The position numbers and the translations under genes were made by a program. A model generated the notes under the pieces. That model made no database searches. It was not told the origin of the DNA and was given only the letters and a program-made list of their open reading frames with translations. Below, in pieces: positions 2,903 through 47,437 of a stretch of DNA of 64,000 nt (position 1 is its first letter; each line of letters begins with the position of its first letter). The stretch comes from a virus (lineage: Duplodnaviria; Caudoviricetes): positions 19,484-83,483 of the IMG/VR virus record IMGVR_UViG_3300033073_000736. One strand, 5' to 3'.

Positions 2903-3485
2903 GAAAAAGGAGTACCAAGATAAGTTTCCAAACAAGGTGTGGCTAGACATGCCTGAAGTTTGGAAGACAGAGGCGGAATACTGGAAATACTTGCGTGGGC
3001 AAATGCGGAACATTTGGCGGTTCTTCCCTGTGAAGAACAAGTTCAAGGCGATGCAAATGGTTCCAGTATTTGAGGGGTGTGGAGTTACCAATCCGAAAGT
3101 TAAGAAGGTTGGGCAATGTGCTTACTGTAAGAAATGGTTTGCAGCAAACAAACTACAAGTTGACCATATAGAACCGGCAGGTTCATTTAAGAGTTACGAG
3201 CAAGCGGCAGAATTTATATACAATTTGCTTACACCGATGTCTAATATGCAACTCTTGTGTGAAGATAACTGTCATTGCCTTAAGACCTACAGTGAACGCA
3301 TGGGGATGAGCATGGAAGATGCTATTATCGAAAAGCAATGTGTTGCCTTCGGTAAACTTCCAGCAGCAGAGCAATCAAAGCGATTCATTGAGATTGGAAT
3401 CAATCCAGATGAATATAGCACCAAGGAAAAGCGTAGGGACGCATATCGTGAACATTTAAAAACGGAGCGTGACAAAAATGCGTGA
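2895..3485 (+). CDS. HNH-family endonuclease
   Basis: CAYC...LQVDHIEP...N.QLLCEDNCHCLKT; GTG start after RBS. Confidence 0.8.
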   Translation: MSKKKEYQDKFPNKVWLDMPEVWKTEAEYWKYLRGQMRNIWRFFPVKNKFKAMQMVPVFEGCGVTNPKVKKVGQCAYCKKWFAANKLQVDHIEPAGSFKSYEQAAEFIYNLLTPMSNMQLLCEDNCHCLKTYSERMGMSMEDAIIEKQCVAFGKLPAAEQSKRFIEIGINPDEYSTKEKRRDAYREHLKTERDKNA

Positions 3486-4962: not shown

Positions 4963-5178
4963 ATGTCTTGCATTATCTTAGACGCAGGTGCATATCAGAT
5001 GGCCGTCAATGTCCTCGAACGTGCTGGAAAGCACGAGGTTGTTGATGAGTTAAGGAAGACGGCTCGTATTATCGAACAACCAAAGAAGCAATGCTGCTGT
5101 TGTGGTACAACCGAAAACCTCTTTAAAGACGGTTGGTACGGATGGCGTTGTAATAGCACAGGTTGTATAGTTTTCTAA
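4963..5178 (+). CDS. hypothetical Cys-rich protein
   Basis: GGAG RBS; first gene after promoter. Confidence 0.6.
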   Translation: MSCIILDAGAYQMAVNVLERAGKHEVVDELRKTARIIEQPKKQCCCCGTTENLFKDGWYGWRCNSTGCIVF

Positions 5179-10866: not shown

Positions 10867-11228
10867 CACAACTTGTAAGCTATAAAAACATCAGCATGTC
10901 TGACTTAATCCGGTGTCCCGGTTTTGATGGAACAGAGGAAAAGATTAAGGAATTGCTGTTTCAACTTGGTGTAGACACACAATTCCCCGTAGATTGTGAA
11001 GTGGTTACTCATCGCAACATGCAGAACCAAGTGGTAACTTGTGAATACTATATGGGGCGGGAACGTACTGATAAAGCGTATATTCGTTCAGGACATGCCA
11101 GTATTGAAGCCCTTTATGCCAGTAAGCCAGATATTGCACAGGACTTGATTAAGATGAGTCGGCAAGGTATTGGTGAACGTGTGTTCAAGAAGAATGAAAG
11201 CAATAAGAAAAGTGGTGATGAGGAATGA
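10863..11228 (+). CDS. hypothetical protein between thyX and nrdA
   Basis: Coupled ORF. Confidence 0.65.
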   Translation: MTQLVSYKNISMSDLIRCPGFDGTEEKIKELLFQLGVDTQFPVDCEVVTHRNMQNQVVTCEYYMGRERTDKAYIRSGHASIEALYASKPDIAQDLIKMSRQGIGERVFKKNESNKKSGDEE

Positions 11229-13920
11229 CTGAGAAGATTGAGGAACGGAACGGAATCATTATTGATTATAGTCGTGACAAGTTGTTGCCTGAGAAGGGAT
11301 TGGCAATGCTTACAGCCAAGGGGTTTTACAAGAAGGACAATGAAGATTCCCCCCAACAATCTTTTGCACGAGCAGCAACGTGCTATTGTTTTGGGGATTA
11401 TGAGTTTGCTCAACGTATCTATGATGCCGCAAGCAAGCACTGGTTCACGTTTGCATCTCCTGTTCTCAGCAATGCTGTAGATGTAGAGTGGCCTACATTT
11501 ACTGAAGATGAATGGCTGGATGCAGCAAGTTGGCTACAACGGAATGTCGAGCCTGACGGTATGCCCATTTCTTGCTTCCTTGTGAAGATTCCTGACAACA
11601 AGAAGGGAATTGTCGAAGCACGAACTGAAACTGCTTGGTTGTCGATGATGGGCGGCGGGGTGGGTGTCTATGCCGCCAATCGCTCACCGGATGAGAAGAG
11701 TACGGGCGTGATGTCACATCTTCGTGGATATGATGCTGACACTCTCTCTTATCGTCAGACTGCCAGTCGTCGAGGAAGTATTGCAGCCTATGCAGATATT
11801 ACGCACCCTGAGATTCAATCGTTTATTCAGATGCGTAATCCCGTAGGCGGGGATGTAAACAAGAAGTGCTTCAATCTGAACAATGCTGTCAATCTCCCAG
11901 ATAGCTTCATGGAAGCAGTTATCAATGAACAAGATTACGAACTGGTTGATCCTAAGCATGGGCCGACAGGACGTAAACTGAACGCATCCAAGATGTTTGA
12001 AGAAGTGCTGGAAATGCGCTTTGAAACAGGTGAACCGTATCTGCATTTTGTAGATACAAGTAATCGCTGCAAGCCGAAGCAGATTACCAATCCGTTGTAC
12101 AAGGTGGAGCAAAGCAACTTGTGTTAATTTCTAGCACCCTGATACAGTAATGTATCTTGAAAACTTTCCTAAAAACGGTGAAACTCTCTAGTAGACAATA
12201 CCGTGCTATCTCGATATGAGGTGTGTAACGACTATGGACAAGAAACAACTTTACAAACTTATCTCAGCTTTTTCTATGGCAGACGGGGGTCTTTACCGTA
12301 GAAAAGAAAATCATAACGCTTATTTTGCAATGAATATGCTGACTTGCCACAATGATTACATTGATTGGGTAAAAAGCGTGTTTGAGAACTTAGTGCATGT
12401 CAACAAAACAAAAGTTCAAAACCCTTGCAAAAGGCCACAGACCAACATAAACACAAAGACGCATCCAGCACTTACAAGCATCCACGGAAGGATTTATCGG
12501 GATGGATATAAAGGGCTTGATGAACACTGGATACACTGCATTGATTGGGAAATATTGGCAATATTTTACATGGCGGACGGGTGTCTGGCAGTTGAACAGC
12601 CCAATACTAAAAAGGGACTAATCAACCCATCTCCGAGCGTGTCATTAAATATGAAACGACTTAGTTACGGGGATACATGGTTTCTCAAAAAGTGTATTAA
12701 AGACAATCTGGATGTGGAATTTAATATTGGAACTCAGAATTACAAAGGCAAGACATATTACTTTCTTCGCTTGCGTAATAAAGATATAGATAAGTTTATG
12801 GAAGGGATCAGACCCCACGTTGTTCCTTCCTTCCGGCATAAGTTGTATGATTCCGAACGGAAAGCCCCGGTGGCTGAAAGACCGGGTGATGATATAGTCT
12901 GAACTGCATAGCGATATGCAGAGGTGGGAGGAAACTGCCCACCCCCGTTTTTACGGAGTAACAAAATTGAGTGAAATAACACTGATGACTTCCGACAAGC
13001 GCACAGCCGTTTGTTGCTTGTCCTCTCTCAATCTTGAGAAGTATGATGAGTGGAAAGACAGCGGATTGGTGAAAGACCTTGTACGATTGCTTGATAACGT
13101 ACTGGAATACTTCATCCGTCTTGCACCGCCTGTTTTGAGTAAGGCTGTTTACTCAGCAAGTATGGAACGTAGCATTGGGATTGGAACGCTTGGTTGGCAC
13201 AGTTACTTGCAAAAGAACATGATTCCTTTTGAAAGTGGTGGATTTGGTAGTGCTGCACAACACACAAATATCTTGTATTCCAAGATTAAGAGTGAGGCAG
13301 AAGAAGCCGGTAAGGAACTTGCTGTAACTCGTGGCGAGGCTCCAGATTGTGCAGGTAGTGGGTATCGCAATGCTCATTTGCTGGCTATTGCTCCGAACGC
13401 ATCTTCAGCAGATATTATCGGTGTTTCACCAAGCATCGAGCCTTGGGCAGGGAACGCTTTCAATAATCAAGGACGGGCAGGAAGTTTTCTAATCAGGAAT
13501 AAGTACCTTGAAAAAGAACTTGACAAGGTAGGGCTTAATACCAAGGAAACATGGGATAGCATTATTGCTAATGATGGAAGTTGTCAGCATATTGATGAGT
13601 TGAGCGAAGATGTTAAGAAAGTGTTCAAGACAGCACGAGAGATTAATCCTATGTGGATTATTGAACTTGCATCCATCCGCCAACAATACATCTGCCAGAG
13701 CCAAAGCGTGAATATCTTTGTCCCTGAAGATATTACAATGCAAGAGATGGCTGACATCCATATTGCAGCTTGGAAGAAGGGGTTGAAGTCGCTGTACTAC
13801 TGTCGTGCCAAGGCTGCCGGAAAGGTGAACATTGGTACAGGTGGGGAAACGCCGCTAAACAGCATTCCAGTCCGTCAGAAGATTGAATGGGCTGGTGAGT
13901 GTTTGTCTTGTCAGGGTTAA
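11225..13920 (+). CDS. nrdA: class Ia ribonucleotide reductase alpha subunit, spliced (exons 11225-12124 and 12970-13920; ~616 aa)
   Basis: SPVLSN, PISCF, GGGVG; splicing restores QSNLC|SEITL; AVCCLSS, AIAPNASS, QSQSVN, SLYY, terminal CLSCQG. Confidence 0.95.
12125..12969 (+). mobile_element. group I intron (IA2-like) in nrdA
   Basis: 5' site after U with P1 GUGU/GCAC; P AAAACGGTGAA, Q CAATACCGTG, R AACGACTA, P3 CTTTCC/GGAAAG, S GATATAGTC, P9 hairpins, terminal G 12969. Confidence 0.93.
12234..12902 (+). CDS. intron-encoded two-motif LAGLIDADG homing endonuclease
   Basis: LISAFSMADGG and ILAIFYMADGC; ATG lies in the P7 strand, GAGGTG RBS. Confidence 0.85.
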   Translation: MDKKQLYKLISAFSMADGGLYRRKENHNAYFAMNMLTCHNDYIDWVKSVFENLVHVNKTKVQNPCKRPQTNINTKTHPALTSIHGRIYRDGYKGLDEHWIHCIDWEILAIFYMADGCLAVEQPNTKKGLINPSPSVSLNMKRLSYGDTWFLKKCIKDNLDVEFNIGTQNYKGKTYYFLRLRNKDIDKFMEGIRPHVVPSFRHKLYDSERKAPVAERPGDDIV

Positions 13921-18907: not shown

Positions 18908-20254
18908 TTATGGGTAGGTTCTGACATCACCAACCCGCTGTGTCGGGTTCATCCCTCTATAATAAAGGATTGCCCCACTGCCCGTTCCAGCAGCAACATC
19001 GTACCTACTCCCCCCGCCAAACGTGCATCTGTCCAGCCACATCTTCGCAGCGCCTGTACTGACGAGCCAAGAAGCGTCCGTTTCGCTATCATCGTTCTTA
19101 ACAGAATTACGAGCATCACATAGAATGTTCCAACTCTCTGTCCCGTCATTAACATCTGCCACTACGGGGCCATCTGCACTGTCATAGGAGCCAAGAATAC
19201 GAATAATCTTGCAACCATCGTGAATGGTTGAGCAGTTGTCGCTCCCTGTTCCGTTGATATCAATACCCGCATCTTTACAAGTAACACCAATTTCTACAGC
19301 TTTAACGATTCTTCCACTCTCGATGTGGTAGTTTAGAATATCTGTATAGCTACCGCTACCACCGCCACCCTGTATAAGGACGTAAGGGATTCCGTAGCAG
19401 TGAAGGTTGTTGCCATTGGTGCTAAATCTAAACCATGTATTACGACAATATAGACGAGAAGATGTCCCGCCACCTGTACAACGTAAACACCCTGTAGCCC
19501 CACCAATCAGTTCAATCTTTCCACTGGTTCCACCGTCAAAAATCCATGTGTAGTTGGATGTGAATGTCGTATTGGAAGCATTGACTATAATGAATAGGTT
19601 AGTGTCCCCGGTTGGTGTAGTGTTGTTCAACTTGTGTACGTATAAGGTGCTGCCGGATTGAAACCAACTCCCCATAGTGGATTGACATTCAGCCAGAGAA
19701 GCAGCCGCATAATAACGAGTCGGATCACCATAAGCATTTAGTGTAGAATAATCCCTCACTTGAGCAACAGAGGAACGGTTGGCAGAATACGTATTGCTTC
19801 CAACACTTGTCCATGTAAGCGTGGAAGCCTTGACGAATGGTCCTGTACGCACATTCCCTGCTGCCTTGAAGATGACATTCTTCCCCGTCACACCGCCAGA
19901 GCCGGGATGGTCATTTTGCATATAGTCCCCTGCTGCCAGATTAATTCTCACCCAAGGGGTGGGGGCTGAAGCAGCAAGGGTCATTGTGTTGTCAATCCCT
20001 TTCTTTGGTGTACTGATTGTCAACCCATCGTTGCTGTCACTACCAGACGGTGATACGTAATAATCAGTAACACTAATTCCATTATACAACGAATCGAAAT
20101 TAAAGGATGTGGTTCCATTCCCATATATGGTGAAGGGTGGGTCAAATGTATCCGGTGTGAACGTCAATCCTACGGGAGGAGTGAGATAGTAGGAGGGGGA
20201 AGATGAACCCCTGCTACCTGTTGCCACTCCACCGGAAGCATATTCATTGTTCAT
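18908..20254 (-). CDS. tailspike/depolymerase-like beta-helix protein
   Basis: YYVSPSGSDSNDG..STP.K motif then G/S/T/N-rich beta repeats; ATG 20254 after GGAG. Confidence 0.6.
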   Translation of the reverse strand: MNNEYASGGVATGSRGSSSPSYYLTPPVGLTFTPDTFDPPFTIYGNGTTSFNFDSLYNGISVTDYYVSPSGSDSNDGLTISTPKKGIDNTMTLAASAPTPWVRINLAAGDYMQNDHPGSGGVTGKNVIFKAAGNVRTGPFVKASTLTWTSVGSNTYSANRSSVAQVRDYSTLNAYGDPTRYYAAASLAECQSTMGSWFQSGSTLYVHKLNNTTPTGDTNLFIIVNASNTTFTSNYTWIFDGGTSGKIELIGGATGCLRCTGGGTSSRLYCRNTWFRFSTNGNNLHCYGIPYVLIQGGGGSGSYTDILNYHIESGRIVKAVEIGVTCKDAGIDINGTGSDNCSTIHDGCKIIRILGSYDSADGPVVADVNDGTESWNILCDARNSVKNDDSETDASWLVSTGAAKMWLDRCTFGGGSRYDVAAGTGSGAILYYRGMNPTQRVGDVRTYP

Positions 20255-44399: not shown

Positions 44400-44427
44400 A
44401 GAATAACACCACTTCTCTATTTGTCAA
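44400..44427 (-). promoter_or_regulatory. possible sigma70 promoter for HNH/terL
   Basis: TTGACA-16-TATTCT. Confidence 0.45.
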
Positions 44428-44449: not shown

Positions 44450-44818
44450 TTATTCGTCCCCGACAATTTTCAAACTGAAAACAGCGCCACCAGATTCTCC
44501 CCCGTCATCATCAGGAATATCCTTGCCACCAGTTTCTTGCTTCAGTTTCTCAAGCGTGTATTTCATCATTGTCTGACGATCAACTTCTTTCATTGTAGAT
44601 GTCAGTGTGGCAACAATCCATTGACCAGCTTTGACACGTTCACGCATACTTTCTTCTTCGTCACGCATCAGCTTGATAATCAAGTCAATGGCTTCGTCGG
44701 CTGCTGGAGCCAATTTACGCACGATGCGGGTACTATCCGCCTTACCGAAGGGTTTATCCTTGTGAGAAGGACGCCCGCCCTTCTTAGGCTGTTCAGAAGC
44801 GTTTAATACTGCTTCCAT
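44450..44818 (-). CDS. putative terminase small subunit
   Basis: N-terminal GGRP, helical body, upstream of terL. Confidence 0.5.
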   Translation of the reverse strand: MEAVLNASEQPKKGGRPSHKDKPFGKADSTRIVRKLAPAADEAIDLIIKLMRDEEESMRERVKAGQWIVATLTSTMKEVDRQTMMKYTLEKLKQETGGKDIPDDDGGESGGAVFSLKIVGDE

Positions 44819-44900
44819 AGTCTTTCTCCTATGTTATTGTATGTTCGCCACCTGCCCTTTCACTTTCAGTAGGCGATAGCTCACCTTCACTGCAAGATTG

Positions 44901-45140
44901 TTAGCAGAGGCATAAATGATTCGTGGACAAATGTCTGTACGCTCTGGTATTTTGGCTAGTGTATGGGCTGGCAATAGGGACAATCATGTTTCTTGAGATG
45001 TTTGTCAATTCTGTATTCTTTTGAACAGAAGATGTGTTAATACTGCCATCTGAATTGACAGACATTTGAATTGTCTGGTCATCCTTATCTCGGATAATCG
45101 ACATTTGATGTTCCAAGCGGAGATTTTCAGCCAATGACAT
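44901..45140 (-). CDS. hypothetical protein
   Basis: AGGAG/AAGG RBS. Confidence 0.5.
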   Translation of the reverse strand: MSLAENLRLEHQMSIIRDKDDQTIQMSVNSDGSINTSSVQKNTELTNISRNMIVPIASPYTSQNTRAYRHLSTNHLCLC

Positions 45141-45191
45141 ACCTTTCTCCTTCTCTCCTTGGAATATAATTATTTTTATAAATAAATTAGA

Positions 45192-45267
45192 TGGAGCCTT
45201 TGTCGGGATTCAAACCCAACCCTTCGGACTACAAAACCGAAATGCTAATCACTGACACCACAAAGGC
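45192..45267 (-). tRNA. tRNA-Thr(UGU)
   Basis: 76-nt cloverleaf: GCCTTTG/CAAAGGC acceptor, loop TT-TGT-AG, T-arm TTGGG-TTTGAAT-CCCGA, encoded CCA. Confidence 0.88.
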
Positions 45268-45269
45268 TT

Positions 45270-45745
45270 GGTCGCCTATTGAAAGCCCGGCGGAAGGACT
45301 TTGCCCGAACATCTTTGTACACAATGGTTATTCCTTTCAGGACGGTACGTGAGCAAATAGGAATTTAAATAAAGTGTGCTGCGCTCAACCGTTGCTTCCG
45401 GCTGTTCCATGTCGATGCTACACTCAATGTAGTGCACGCAGCAAATAAGAATGTGTATTGCGACCGGAATCATCCAATCCATTAACCAACACACATTAAA
45501 CGCAAGCCATTCTTCTCATGTTCTTGTATGGCTTGGCCTAGGAGGTTTACAAGGCACACCTAGGTCTTGAGGCTGGTTCTCCCACGAACCGTAACTTTTG
45601 ATTAAAGTGAGTTCAGCTTCTCACCGGGATACAACACGGAAGCCCCTATCCAGAACTAGGAAGGAAAATTACGGCCCCGGAATTGTAGCACCCTCTTACA
45701 ACCATCATCAATGAATATTACATTACAACAAAAGAGGATGCCTAC
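45270..45745 (-). ncRNA. candidate large structured ncRNA of unknown family
   Basis: Promoter upstream, no credible ORF, many 7-11 bp stems plus one long-range 10-bp pairing; abuts tRNA. Confidence 0.6.
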
Positions 45746-45751
45746 ACAATC

Positions 45752-45779
45752 AACATACCATAAATTTCTACAATGTCAA
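45752..45779 (-). promoter_or_regulatory. sigma70 promoter (extended -10) for ncRNA/tRNA
   Basis: TTGACA-16-TATGTT with TGn. Confidence 0.65.
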
Positions 45780-45784
45780 GACCA

Positions 45785-45988
45785 TTACTCGTCATATTTT
45801 GTAAAATTCCAGTAATACTTACCAAAGAAAGGGTCTTCAGTCAAGTGCTGCAACTGATATTCATGCCAATCTTTAGGACGTAAAGCAGCATCAACACAGA
45901 TGTTACACATGTCATTCCAGCTTCCATCGGGAAGCCTCTTAGCCATCTCTCCAGCCATCAAGATGCGATCACAACAAACACATCGCAT
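45785..45988 (-). CDS. small Zn-binding protein
   Basis: CVCCD...CNIC; GGAG RBS. Confidence 0.6.
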   Translation of the reverse strand: MRCVCCDRILMAGEMAKRLPDGSWNDMCNICVDAALRPKDWHEYQLQHLTEDPFFGKYYWNFTKYDE

Positions 45989-46010
45989 AATTTATTTCTC
46001 CATTTAATTA

Positions 46011-46286
46011 TTATTGTTTTTCAGACAACTTCCTATATGTTTCAACAATCTTTTCAAGCGATGTTGAATACTGAATCAGTTGCTCTATCGTAACACGATA
46101 CCCTCTCACTACCTCGCCATCACTGCTTGTCACATCCAGCTTTGATGTTTCCAGAATTGGTCTAGCCAATGCTGGTGGTGTAGGGATAGTTGCACTAACA
46201 TATACTGGCTTGCATGTAGAACAAGCACTAACAATTGTGGCAATGCCGATAGCACAGCCCATACGGAATACAGAAAATCCATTCAT
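46011..46286 (-). CDS. o-spanin (Rz1-like lipoprotein)
   Basis: Lipobox IVSA|C, Pro-rich segment; AGGAG RBS. Confidence 0.75.
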   Translation of the reverse strand: MNGFSVFRMGCAIGIATIVSACSTCKPVYVSATIPTPPALARPILETSKLDVTSSDGEVVRGYRVTIEQLIQYSTSLEKIVETYRKLSEKQ

Positions 46287-47408: not shown

Positions 47409-47437
47409 AATGTAACACTGGTTGTTCTGGTTGTCAA
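47409..47437 (-). promoter_or_regulatory. sigma70 promoter
   Basis: TTGACA-17-TACATT. Confidence 0.7.

Follow-up and report, generated by a model that had tools for sequence, protein, structure and literature searches.

Phage tRNA islands repeatedly hold structured RNAs without known function; rnaC and rnaD of T4, the ncRNAs of PAK_P3, GOLLD and ROOL are examples. The T4 genes rnaC and rnaD (species 1 and 2) reside inside the phage tRNA cluster, where they share the strand of the tRNAs and lie beside tRNA-Arg, and their products are annotated as small, stable RNAs. In PAK_P3 (Nankokuvirus), ncRNA1/sRNA1 and ncRNA2/sRNA2 are abundant, processed, late RNAs of ~210 and ~120 nt with no known function (PMC4933390, PMC10914365). 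GOLLD and ROOL are found in phages and prophages, often by tRNA islands, and combine a modular ornate structure with a function that is not known (bioRxiv 10.1101/2024.12.08.627333).

The locus described here lies in a 64,000-nt stretch of DNA from an uncultured phage (hereafter the window) that covers positions 19,484 to 83,483 of IMG/VR virus record IMGVR_UViG_3300033073_000736. The record comprises 83.5 kb and has an estimated completeness of 74%. On its minus strand, the window carries two putative RNA modules, RNA A and RNA B, ahead of a tRNA gene. Like T4 rnaC and rnaD, they are situated within a tRNA locus and on the same strand as the tRNA, no terminator or promoter is called between them and the tRNA, and in one relative, L014, tRNAs are interleaved with them. 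The T4 RNAs are 119-139 nt long and rnaC has a tRNA-like T arm, whereas RNA A measures 234-448 nt, is promoter-proximal and is not tRNA-like. A blastn-short comparison of rnaC and rnaD with RNA A and RNA B returned chance 7-10-mers only.

PAK_P3 is a related phage with a terminase ~54-56% identical to that of the window, and its ncRNAs occupy the same genomic place, beside tRNAs and just upstream of the terminase gene. In PAK_P5, which belongs to the same species, a promoter is followed by a structured RNA of ~170 nt and then by tRNAs and tRNA-like elements. Unlike the window RNAs, the PAK_P3 RNAs are GC-rich, and ncRNA2 is tRNA-like with a T-loop motif. Homology of the PAK_P3-type RNAs to RNA A or RNA B was not detectable, and an nhmmer profile of RNA A found nothing in the PAK_P5 locus (L048) or in that of phiK7A1 (L047). 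Expression has been shown for the PAK_P3 RNAs, while RNA A and RNA B are predicted from sequence comparison. A preliminary description of the stretch had pointed to GOLLD and ROOL as large ornate RNAs found beside phage tRNAs. The parallel holds for the setting in a phage and beside a tRNA: as with GOLLD (RF01998), a tRNA (45195-45267) abuts the stretch in the window and tRNA arrays are present in homologous islands. It does not hold for the molecule itself. The covariance models for GOLLD and ROOL (RF03087) match neither in the window nor in five relatives, and RNA A, two- to threefold smaller than these RNAs, has the look of a row of hairpins with no long-range closing helix.

Genomic setting and promoter

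The gene content of the window is that of a myovirus-like phage in which homing endonucleases are abundant, and includes genes for the large terminase, LAGLIDADG and HNH endonucleases, PhoH, DNA methylases and the large subunit of ribonucleotide reductase. The cultured phages that best match the large terminase (~54-56% identity) are all Pseudomonas phages, PAK_P1/PAK_P3-type phages among them; many terminases of Escherichia and Salmonella phages also match at less than 60% identity. Truncation of the terminase by introns, suspected from the offset of a PHROG profile, was ruled out, as the 449-aa ORF aligns end to end with the terminases of cultured phages. The ribonucleotide reductase large subunit (11225-13920, plus strand) is encoded by two ORFs split by a LAGLIDADG_2 endonuclease ORF (12216-12902), which could be an intron or an intein-like insertion.

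The RNA-bearing stretch heads a long minus-strand block leading into the structural genes and is located between an ORF for a 67-aa protein with a CxxC...CxxC arrangement (45785-45988) and the tRNA gene. Read along the minus strand, a sigma-70 promoter is followed by 478 ORF-free bases and then by a tRNA-Thr(UGU)-like gene. The promoter (45752-45779, minus strand) is near-consensus and consists of TTGACA, 16 nt and TATGTT, the latter with the TG extension of an extended -10 element. Transcription is predicted to start seven bases after the -10 element at G45745, the first base of an invariant GUAG. Both the -35/-10 geometry and the 5' GUAG are kept ahead of every relative of RNA A. Three statements of the preliminary description are thereby borne out, namely a sigma70 promoter on the minus strand, a tRNA alongside (the Rfam RF00005 match directly downstream at 45195-45267) and the lack of any credible ORF in the stretch, to which we add that none is conserved. 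The same strand carries two more promoters that combine a perfect TTGACA with a TG-extended -10 element (47409-47437 and 44400-44427), and strong host-type promoters appear to be used by the phage throughout the minus-strand block. A partner protein for the RNA is not evident among the genes of the window.

RNA A, a row of hairpins ahead of a nearly invariant junction

Loci surrounding relatives of the large terminase were fetched as the first source of homologues. In addition, a degenerate pattern derived from the most conserved segment was run against viral and metagenome contigs, and contigs encoding relatives of the upstream CxxC protein were collected. Twelve distinct copies of RNA A are available, i.e., the window copy (45366-45745, minus strand, 380 nt) and those on contigs L004, L005, L008, L014, L016, L021, L023, L028, L029, L095 and L096; a truncated copy on L006 is additional to these. 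The set is small, about a dozen sequences from few lineages. Two metagenome pattern matches (L020 and L027) were chance matches and were dropped, and a second viral-contig pattern, based on P3 and P4 (see below), returned chance matches in coding sequence only. The stretch has no blastn match in cultured phage genomes, and nothing was found in ~186,000 prokaryote genomes, whether via the flanking CxxC protein or via a 23-mer of the junction. In searches of Rfam 15 (4227 families), nothing but the adjoining tRNA was matched, either in the window at gathering score or in region 44800-46200 at E values up to 10, and no family was obtained for the stretch in five relatives, in keeping with the novelty supposed in the preliminary description. 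The RNA A family was not found in the literature searched either. To judge from these comparisons, RNA A is a new structured ncRNA family outside Rfam 15.

All copies begin at the promoter and end with ...CGCAGCACACUUUAUU. They share a layout in which a row of hairpins (P1, the optional M2, P3, P4 and P5) precedes a 3' three-way junction and a U-rich tail. Lengths range from 234 nt in L014 to 448 nt in L023, and the differences correspond to whole hairpin tips or whole domains, as is usual in structured RNAs. The folding energy of the single sequence is ordinary compared with shuffles (z = -0.6 for the minus strand, +0.24 for the plus strand), and on thermodynamics alone the finding would be unconvincing. 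Across the homologues, helices keep pairing via compensatory changes (P1, P3, P5 and the pseudoknot of RNA B). Since G.U cells outnumber A.C cells by 47 to 8 across the helices, the RNA is read from the minus strand, for which the preliminary description had argued on the basis of G-U pairs. There is no ORF common to the copies, and of 399 pairwise indel runs only 74 have a length divisible by three. Taken as a comparative argument, these data indicate that the gene-free stretch encodes a conserved, folded ncRNA on the minus strand.

In principle, the stretch could contain no functional RNA at all and instead represent a signal at the DNA level, such as a packaging site or a homing target, or a set of decayed tRNA genes. 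The position of the region upstream of the terminase gene, the abundance of homing endonucleases in the genome and the mosaic nature of the island would all suit such an explanation. However, compensatory pair changes and a strong excess of G.U over A.C are signatures of RNA, and no segment of RNA A is recognized as a tRNA. Because of the covariation this explanation is largely refuted, and we consider it extremely improbable.

The 5' domain P1 (45685-45745, minus strand) is closed by a helix of 8-10 bp, the GCAUCCUCUU/AAGAGGGUGC stem of the preliminary description, which surrounds a small hairpin, P1a (GUUGU/GUAAU here). In a count that took the helix ends as anchors for both strands, pairing was kept in 96 of 96 cells, ten cells had changes on both sides and none of 2000 shuffles was as good. 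The window has GCAUCCUC/GAGGGUGC, most copies GCAGCAUC/GGUGCUGC and L096 GUGGUAUU/AAUACCAC. A MAFFT-based count had yielded weak covariation for P1, with a score reached by 26 of 500 shuffles, because the 3' strand of the window copy was out of register.

M2 (45575-45680, minus strand) is an accessory domain present in seven of the twelve copies. It is absent from L008, L014, L028, L029 and L096, the last of which is the closest relative of the window. It contains an invariant hairpin, GUGAG/CUCAC (45607-45624), conserved in these seven copies, and a second, homologue-supported hairpin, GGUUC/GAACC (45575-45590), in place of which the L004 group has GGGG/CCC(U). A long helix, CCGUAAUUUU/AAAGUUACGG (45665-45674 with 45589-45598, verified by a duplex check), extends to ~13 bp in the window at -16 kcal/mol. 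At its position, L016 and L021 have the shorter domain-closing helix CCGG/CCGG and L004 and L023 have CCGGA/UCCGG. It had originally been described as a long-range 10-bp pairing that would cross other stems as a pseudoknot. The pairing exists, but does not have to form a pseudoknot, since the minimum-free-energy fold accommodates it as a nested helix; it would be crossed only if CCGGG/CCCGG formed as well, and this second stem, also part of the original proposal, is neither conserved in relatives nor used in the minimum-free-energy fold.

P3 (45537-45564, minus strand), with the stem CCUAGG...CCUAGG, carries a swappable tip. Five of its pairs change on both sides and its covariation score was reached by two of 500 shuffles. 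In L095 (2920-3010) and L096 (955-1045), P3 is duplicated in tandem, with each of the two tip variants occurring once, while it is single in the other lineages. This explains the apparent swap of the tip. The neighboring P4 hairpin (45503-45535, minus strand; CAAGCCAU/AUGGCUUG) encloses a 17-nt A-rich loop, instead of which the L004 group has an AU hairpin. Its stem is identical in the ten copies counted, and L095 has two uncompensated changes, both transitions. P5 (45450-45497, minus strand; AAUGUGUGUUG/CAAUACACAUU) is composed of an 11-bp helix and an inner 6-bp helix with a variable tip. Of its cells, 94.9% are paired, five pairs change on both sides and none of 500 shuffles was as good; note that L014 and L021 have a different short hairpin at this position. 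All three stems had been listed from the single sequence, and relatives uphold P3 and P5 by covariation and P4 by the identity of its stem.

The three-way junction (45377-45443, minus strand) is nearly invariant. The stem UGCUGCG/CGCAGCA, previously noted as enclosing a multibranch, closes the junction and is unchanged in the ten copies aligned; the other two arms are the CUACA/UGUAG hairpin and one whose loop reads GAAGCAA, and the U-rich tail CACUUUAUUUA (45366-45376, minus strand) follows on its 3' side. A 32-nt run within the junction is identical in ten of the twelve copies, while the flanking CxxC protein is only 42-57% identical in the same genomes. Near-invariance means that covariation cannot support the fold of the junction, which is given here as predicted. 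Its conservation marks the junction, together with the U-rich tail, as the likely functional core of RNA A. With RNA A, a covariation-supported family is added to the RNAs of phage tRNA islands that has a compact near-invariant core (~67 nt) and dispensable peripheral domains, and the core presents itself as a small, well-defined target for biochemistry.

Other RNAs occupy the same place in more distant contigs. Behind the same CxxC gene and promoter, L035 (3270-3560), L036 (3270-3450) and L093/L094 (L094:1480-1795) have a different hairpin-rich RNA of 200-330 nt, which starts with GUAG and shares a few motifs with RNA A; the linker CAAGACC is kept in L036. These RNAs were not detected as RNA A by nhmmer and were excluded from the family, but they may be very divergent homologues. 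In L092, a tRNA (450-523) comes immediately after the same CxxC gene and promoter; ARAGORN gives it a four-base anticodon (catt), and RNA A is missing.

RNA B and the separation of the two modules

RNA B (45268-45359, minus strand; 64-92 nt) comprises a hairpin, an H-type pseudoknot and a conserved RYCAA end. In the GUAC/GUAC hairpin a G-C pair is changed to C-G in L016, and an optional inserted hairpin is found in the window copy, L008 and L014. The pseudoknot (about 45273-45302) follows the GUAC/GUAC hairpin. Its stem S2 is 100% paired and has two covarying pairs, each with three or more forms, while S1 is mostly invariant with one compensated pair; two of 500 shuffles were as good as the pseudoknot overall. 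The 3' end, ACCAA in the window, lies directly before the tRNA. A further stem proposed originally, UUUGCUC/GGGCAAA, falls within an insertion that occurs in no copies but those of the window and L016. A profile search revealed eight distinct sequence versions of RNA B on contigs bearing RNA A. L096 contains the first 30 nt before the contig ends, and none was found in L005, L023 and L025.

What follows RNA A differs among relatives. In the window, an AU-rich linker of 6 nt (45360-45365) separates it from RNA B, to which the tRNA is attached, and in L004 RNA B follows alone. In L014, a tRNA-Leu abuts the 3' end of RNA A and is succeeded by tRNA-Pro, tRNA-Leu, an odd tRNA-like element, tRNA-His and then RNA B, so that five tRNA genes, the odd element counted, split the two modules in this one relative. 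L005, L021, L023 and L029 have a canonical intrinsic terminator (7-bp GC stem and U7 run) right after RNA A, which makes RNA A a promoter-to-terminator sRNA gene there. In L025, RNA A ends 13 nt before the ribosome-binding site of an ORF.

The preliminary description had treated the stretch as a single RNA of ~475 nt. This claim has to be abandoned in view of modules that are separated, lost or terminated independently in relatives, and the comparison indicates that the 475 bases encode two modules that can be separated, and not one molecule. One could still argue that RNA A and RNA B are halves of a single large ornate RNA that tolerates tRNAs in its linker. The modules are indeed adjacent in the window copy, L004 and L096, and GOLLD is variable in its 5' part and conserved in its 3' part, sometimes with tRNAs in the linker (bioRxiv 10.1101/2024.12.08.627333). 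On the other hand, three relatives do without RNA B, four have a terminator behind RNA A, no conserved base pairs linking the two modules were seen and the GOLLD and ROOL models do not match. A single molecule therefore appears quite improbable.

The main rival to a free RNA A is a cis-acting leader, i.e., either an RNA that modifies RNA polymerase for antitermination or a regulatory or stabilizing 5' UTR. The put RNAs of HK022, ~70 nt with two hairpins, act in cis in this way and enable RNA polymerase to read through terminators. RNA A resembles them in being promoter-proximal and structured, and in every copy it comes first behind the promoter. In L021, L023 and L029, one or two terminator-like hairpins stand behind RNA A and ahead of the tRNAs, and no promoter is called within this interval; in L025, the ribosome-binding site of a gene comes directly after RNA A. 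However, the window copy has no terminator downstream, nor do L004, L014 and L025; downstream genes have consensus promoters of their own, e.g., at 44427-44400; and the downstream cargo varies from tRNA to RNA B, terminator or ORF. In L014, RNase P would cut RNA A off the nascent chain, as a tRNA abuts it. Finally, RNA A is far larger than put RNAs. Overall, we regard a leader function as unlikely.

The tRNA island and a proposed route to mature RNAs

The tRNA-Thr(UGU)-like gene (45192-45267, minus strand) encodes its CCA and has U opposite U at positions 31-39. Its match to RF00005 (45195-45267) scores 39.6 bits against a gathering score of 29 with the anticodon UGU, while ARAGORN called no tRNA or tmRNA in the window, including this gene. 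Immediately ahead of the first ORF downstream, the RNA island ends with a conserved AT-rich box of ~25 nt (45164-45188, minus strand; consensus AATTTATTTATAAAAATAATTAAAT) in the window, L006, L008, L014 (L014:4787-4811), L016 and L095; L004 and L025 are without it. The box is a candidate for a phage-specific promoter of the T4-late-like TATAAATA type or for a DNA unwinding element.

As an unwinding element, the box would fit a role of the RNA as a structured pre-primer or origin transcript, comparable to ColE1 RNA II or the origin transcripts of T4. Promoter, structured RNA and AT-rich box occur in a conserved order, and the minimum of the cumulative GC skew, at ~46-48 kb, is 1-2 kb away. However, genes change direction at this same minimum, relatives have tRNAs and as much as 1 kb of other modules between RNA A and the box, and two relatives do not have the box. 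We rate an origin function as very improbable.

Downstream of RNA A, further conserved non-tRNA modules occur in shuffled order in L021, L023, L028, L029, L006, L014 and L095. These comprise a pair of long hairpins that resemble terminators and carry U runs, a closed module whose sequence starts with CAGGUCGAGC...ACCUG, and another in which GGUCUUGAAUCGUGGCAGC occurs. A module containing GGUCUUGAAUCGUGGCAGCACCUCGUCGCC recurs in the shuffled islands and is also present in L035 and L036, which are more distant relatives. The island as a whole is a mosaic of tRNAs and small RNAs, of the kind known from T4 and PAK_P3. Such tRNA islands evolve by shuffling discrete RNA modules, terminators and tRNAs, which is relevant to annotation pipelines.

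Our best explanation, which we hold to be somewhat probable, is that the stretch forms the front of a phage RNA island whose polycistronic precursor is cut into stable, trans-acting RNAs. Host RNA polymerase would start at G45745 from the strong host-type promoter and produce one precursor containing RNA A, RNA B and tRNA-Thr. Co-transcription with the tRNA, as originally suggested, is plausible insofar as neither promoter nor terminator is called between the stretch and the tRNA in the window. The same can be said of the suggested release by RNase P: cleavage at the 5' end of the tRNA would free the 3' end of RNA B here, where the tRNA abuts RNA B, and that of RNA A in L014, where tRNA-Leu abuts RNA A. 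RNA A and RNA B would be parted by an endonuclease cut in the AU-rich 6-nt linker (45360-45365), and in the four relatives with a terminator this would instead define the end of RNA A. The products would then accumulate as stable trans-acting RNAs, in which the hairpins may scaffold the invariant junction and the junction may bind a host or phage partner, as proposed for other tRNA-island RNAs.

Independent delimitation of RNA A and the loss and gain of neighboring modules argue for RNA A as a free trans-acting RNA. That it works in this manner, with hairpins scaffolding a partner-binding invariant junction, is a proposition to which we assign about an even chance. More tentatively, and with doubts prevailing, RNA A may be a new class of ornate phage RNA in which the junction is a catalytic core, a ligand- or protein-binding core or a self-assembly module and which acts in trans on host translation or RNA metabolism, filling a niche like that of GOLLD and ROOL with an unrelated fold. 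The scaffold, sponge or ribozyme role put forward in the preliminary description is conjecture. A CsrA sponge of the CsrB/RsmZ type was considered and rejected, as GGA and ANGGA counts are within shuffle expectation in most copies. Rfam comparisons in the window and five relatives, together with the ARAGORN tmRNA search, gave no match at the locus to tmRNA, RNase P RNA, 6S RNA, group I introns or self-cleaving ribozymes.

Several tRNA-related elements in the relatives deserve mention. Two elements of L014 (4165-4255 and 4625-4697; also in L013 and L008) are tRNA-like in that the acceptor stem has 7 bp, the T arm is canonical and CCA is encoded, but their bodies are aberrant, and they are called neither by ARAGORN nor by Rfam. 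They resemble the tRNA-like ncRNA2 of PAK_P3, and one of them has a possible CCA (Trp) anticodon. In L008, the homologue of the window tRNA-Thr-like gene (5003-5095) has an insertion of ~18 nt in the T loop and, given this insertion, is probably a pseudo-tRNA. A tRNA-Thr-like gene in L005 (~3220-3350) ends within the anticodon loop and is followed by an A-run and an ORF with CxxC motifs. The ORF possibly encodes an HNH-type endonuclease, and the arrangement may reflect an intron or endonuclease insertion. Rfam group I introns are present in the structural-gene region of L021 (3455-3710 and 4901-5173; 85.8 and 67.4 bits).
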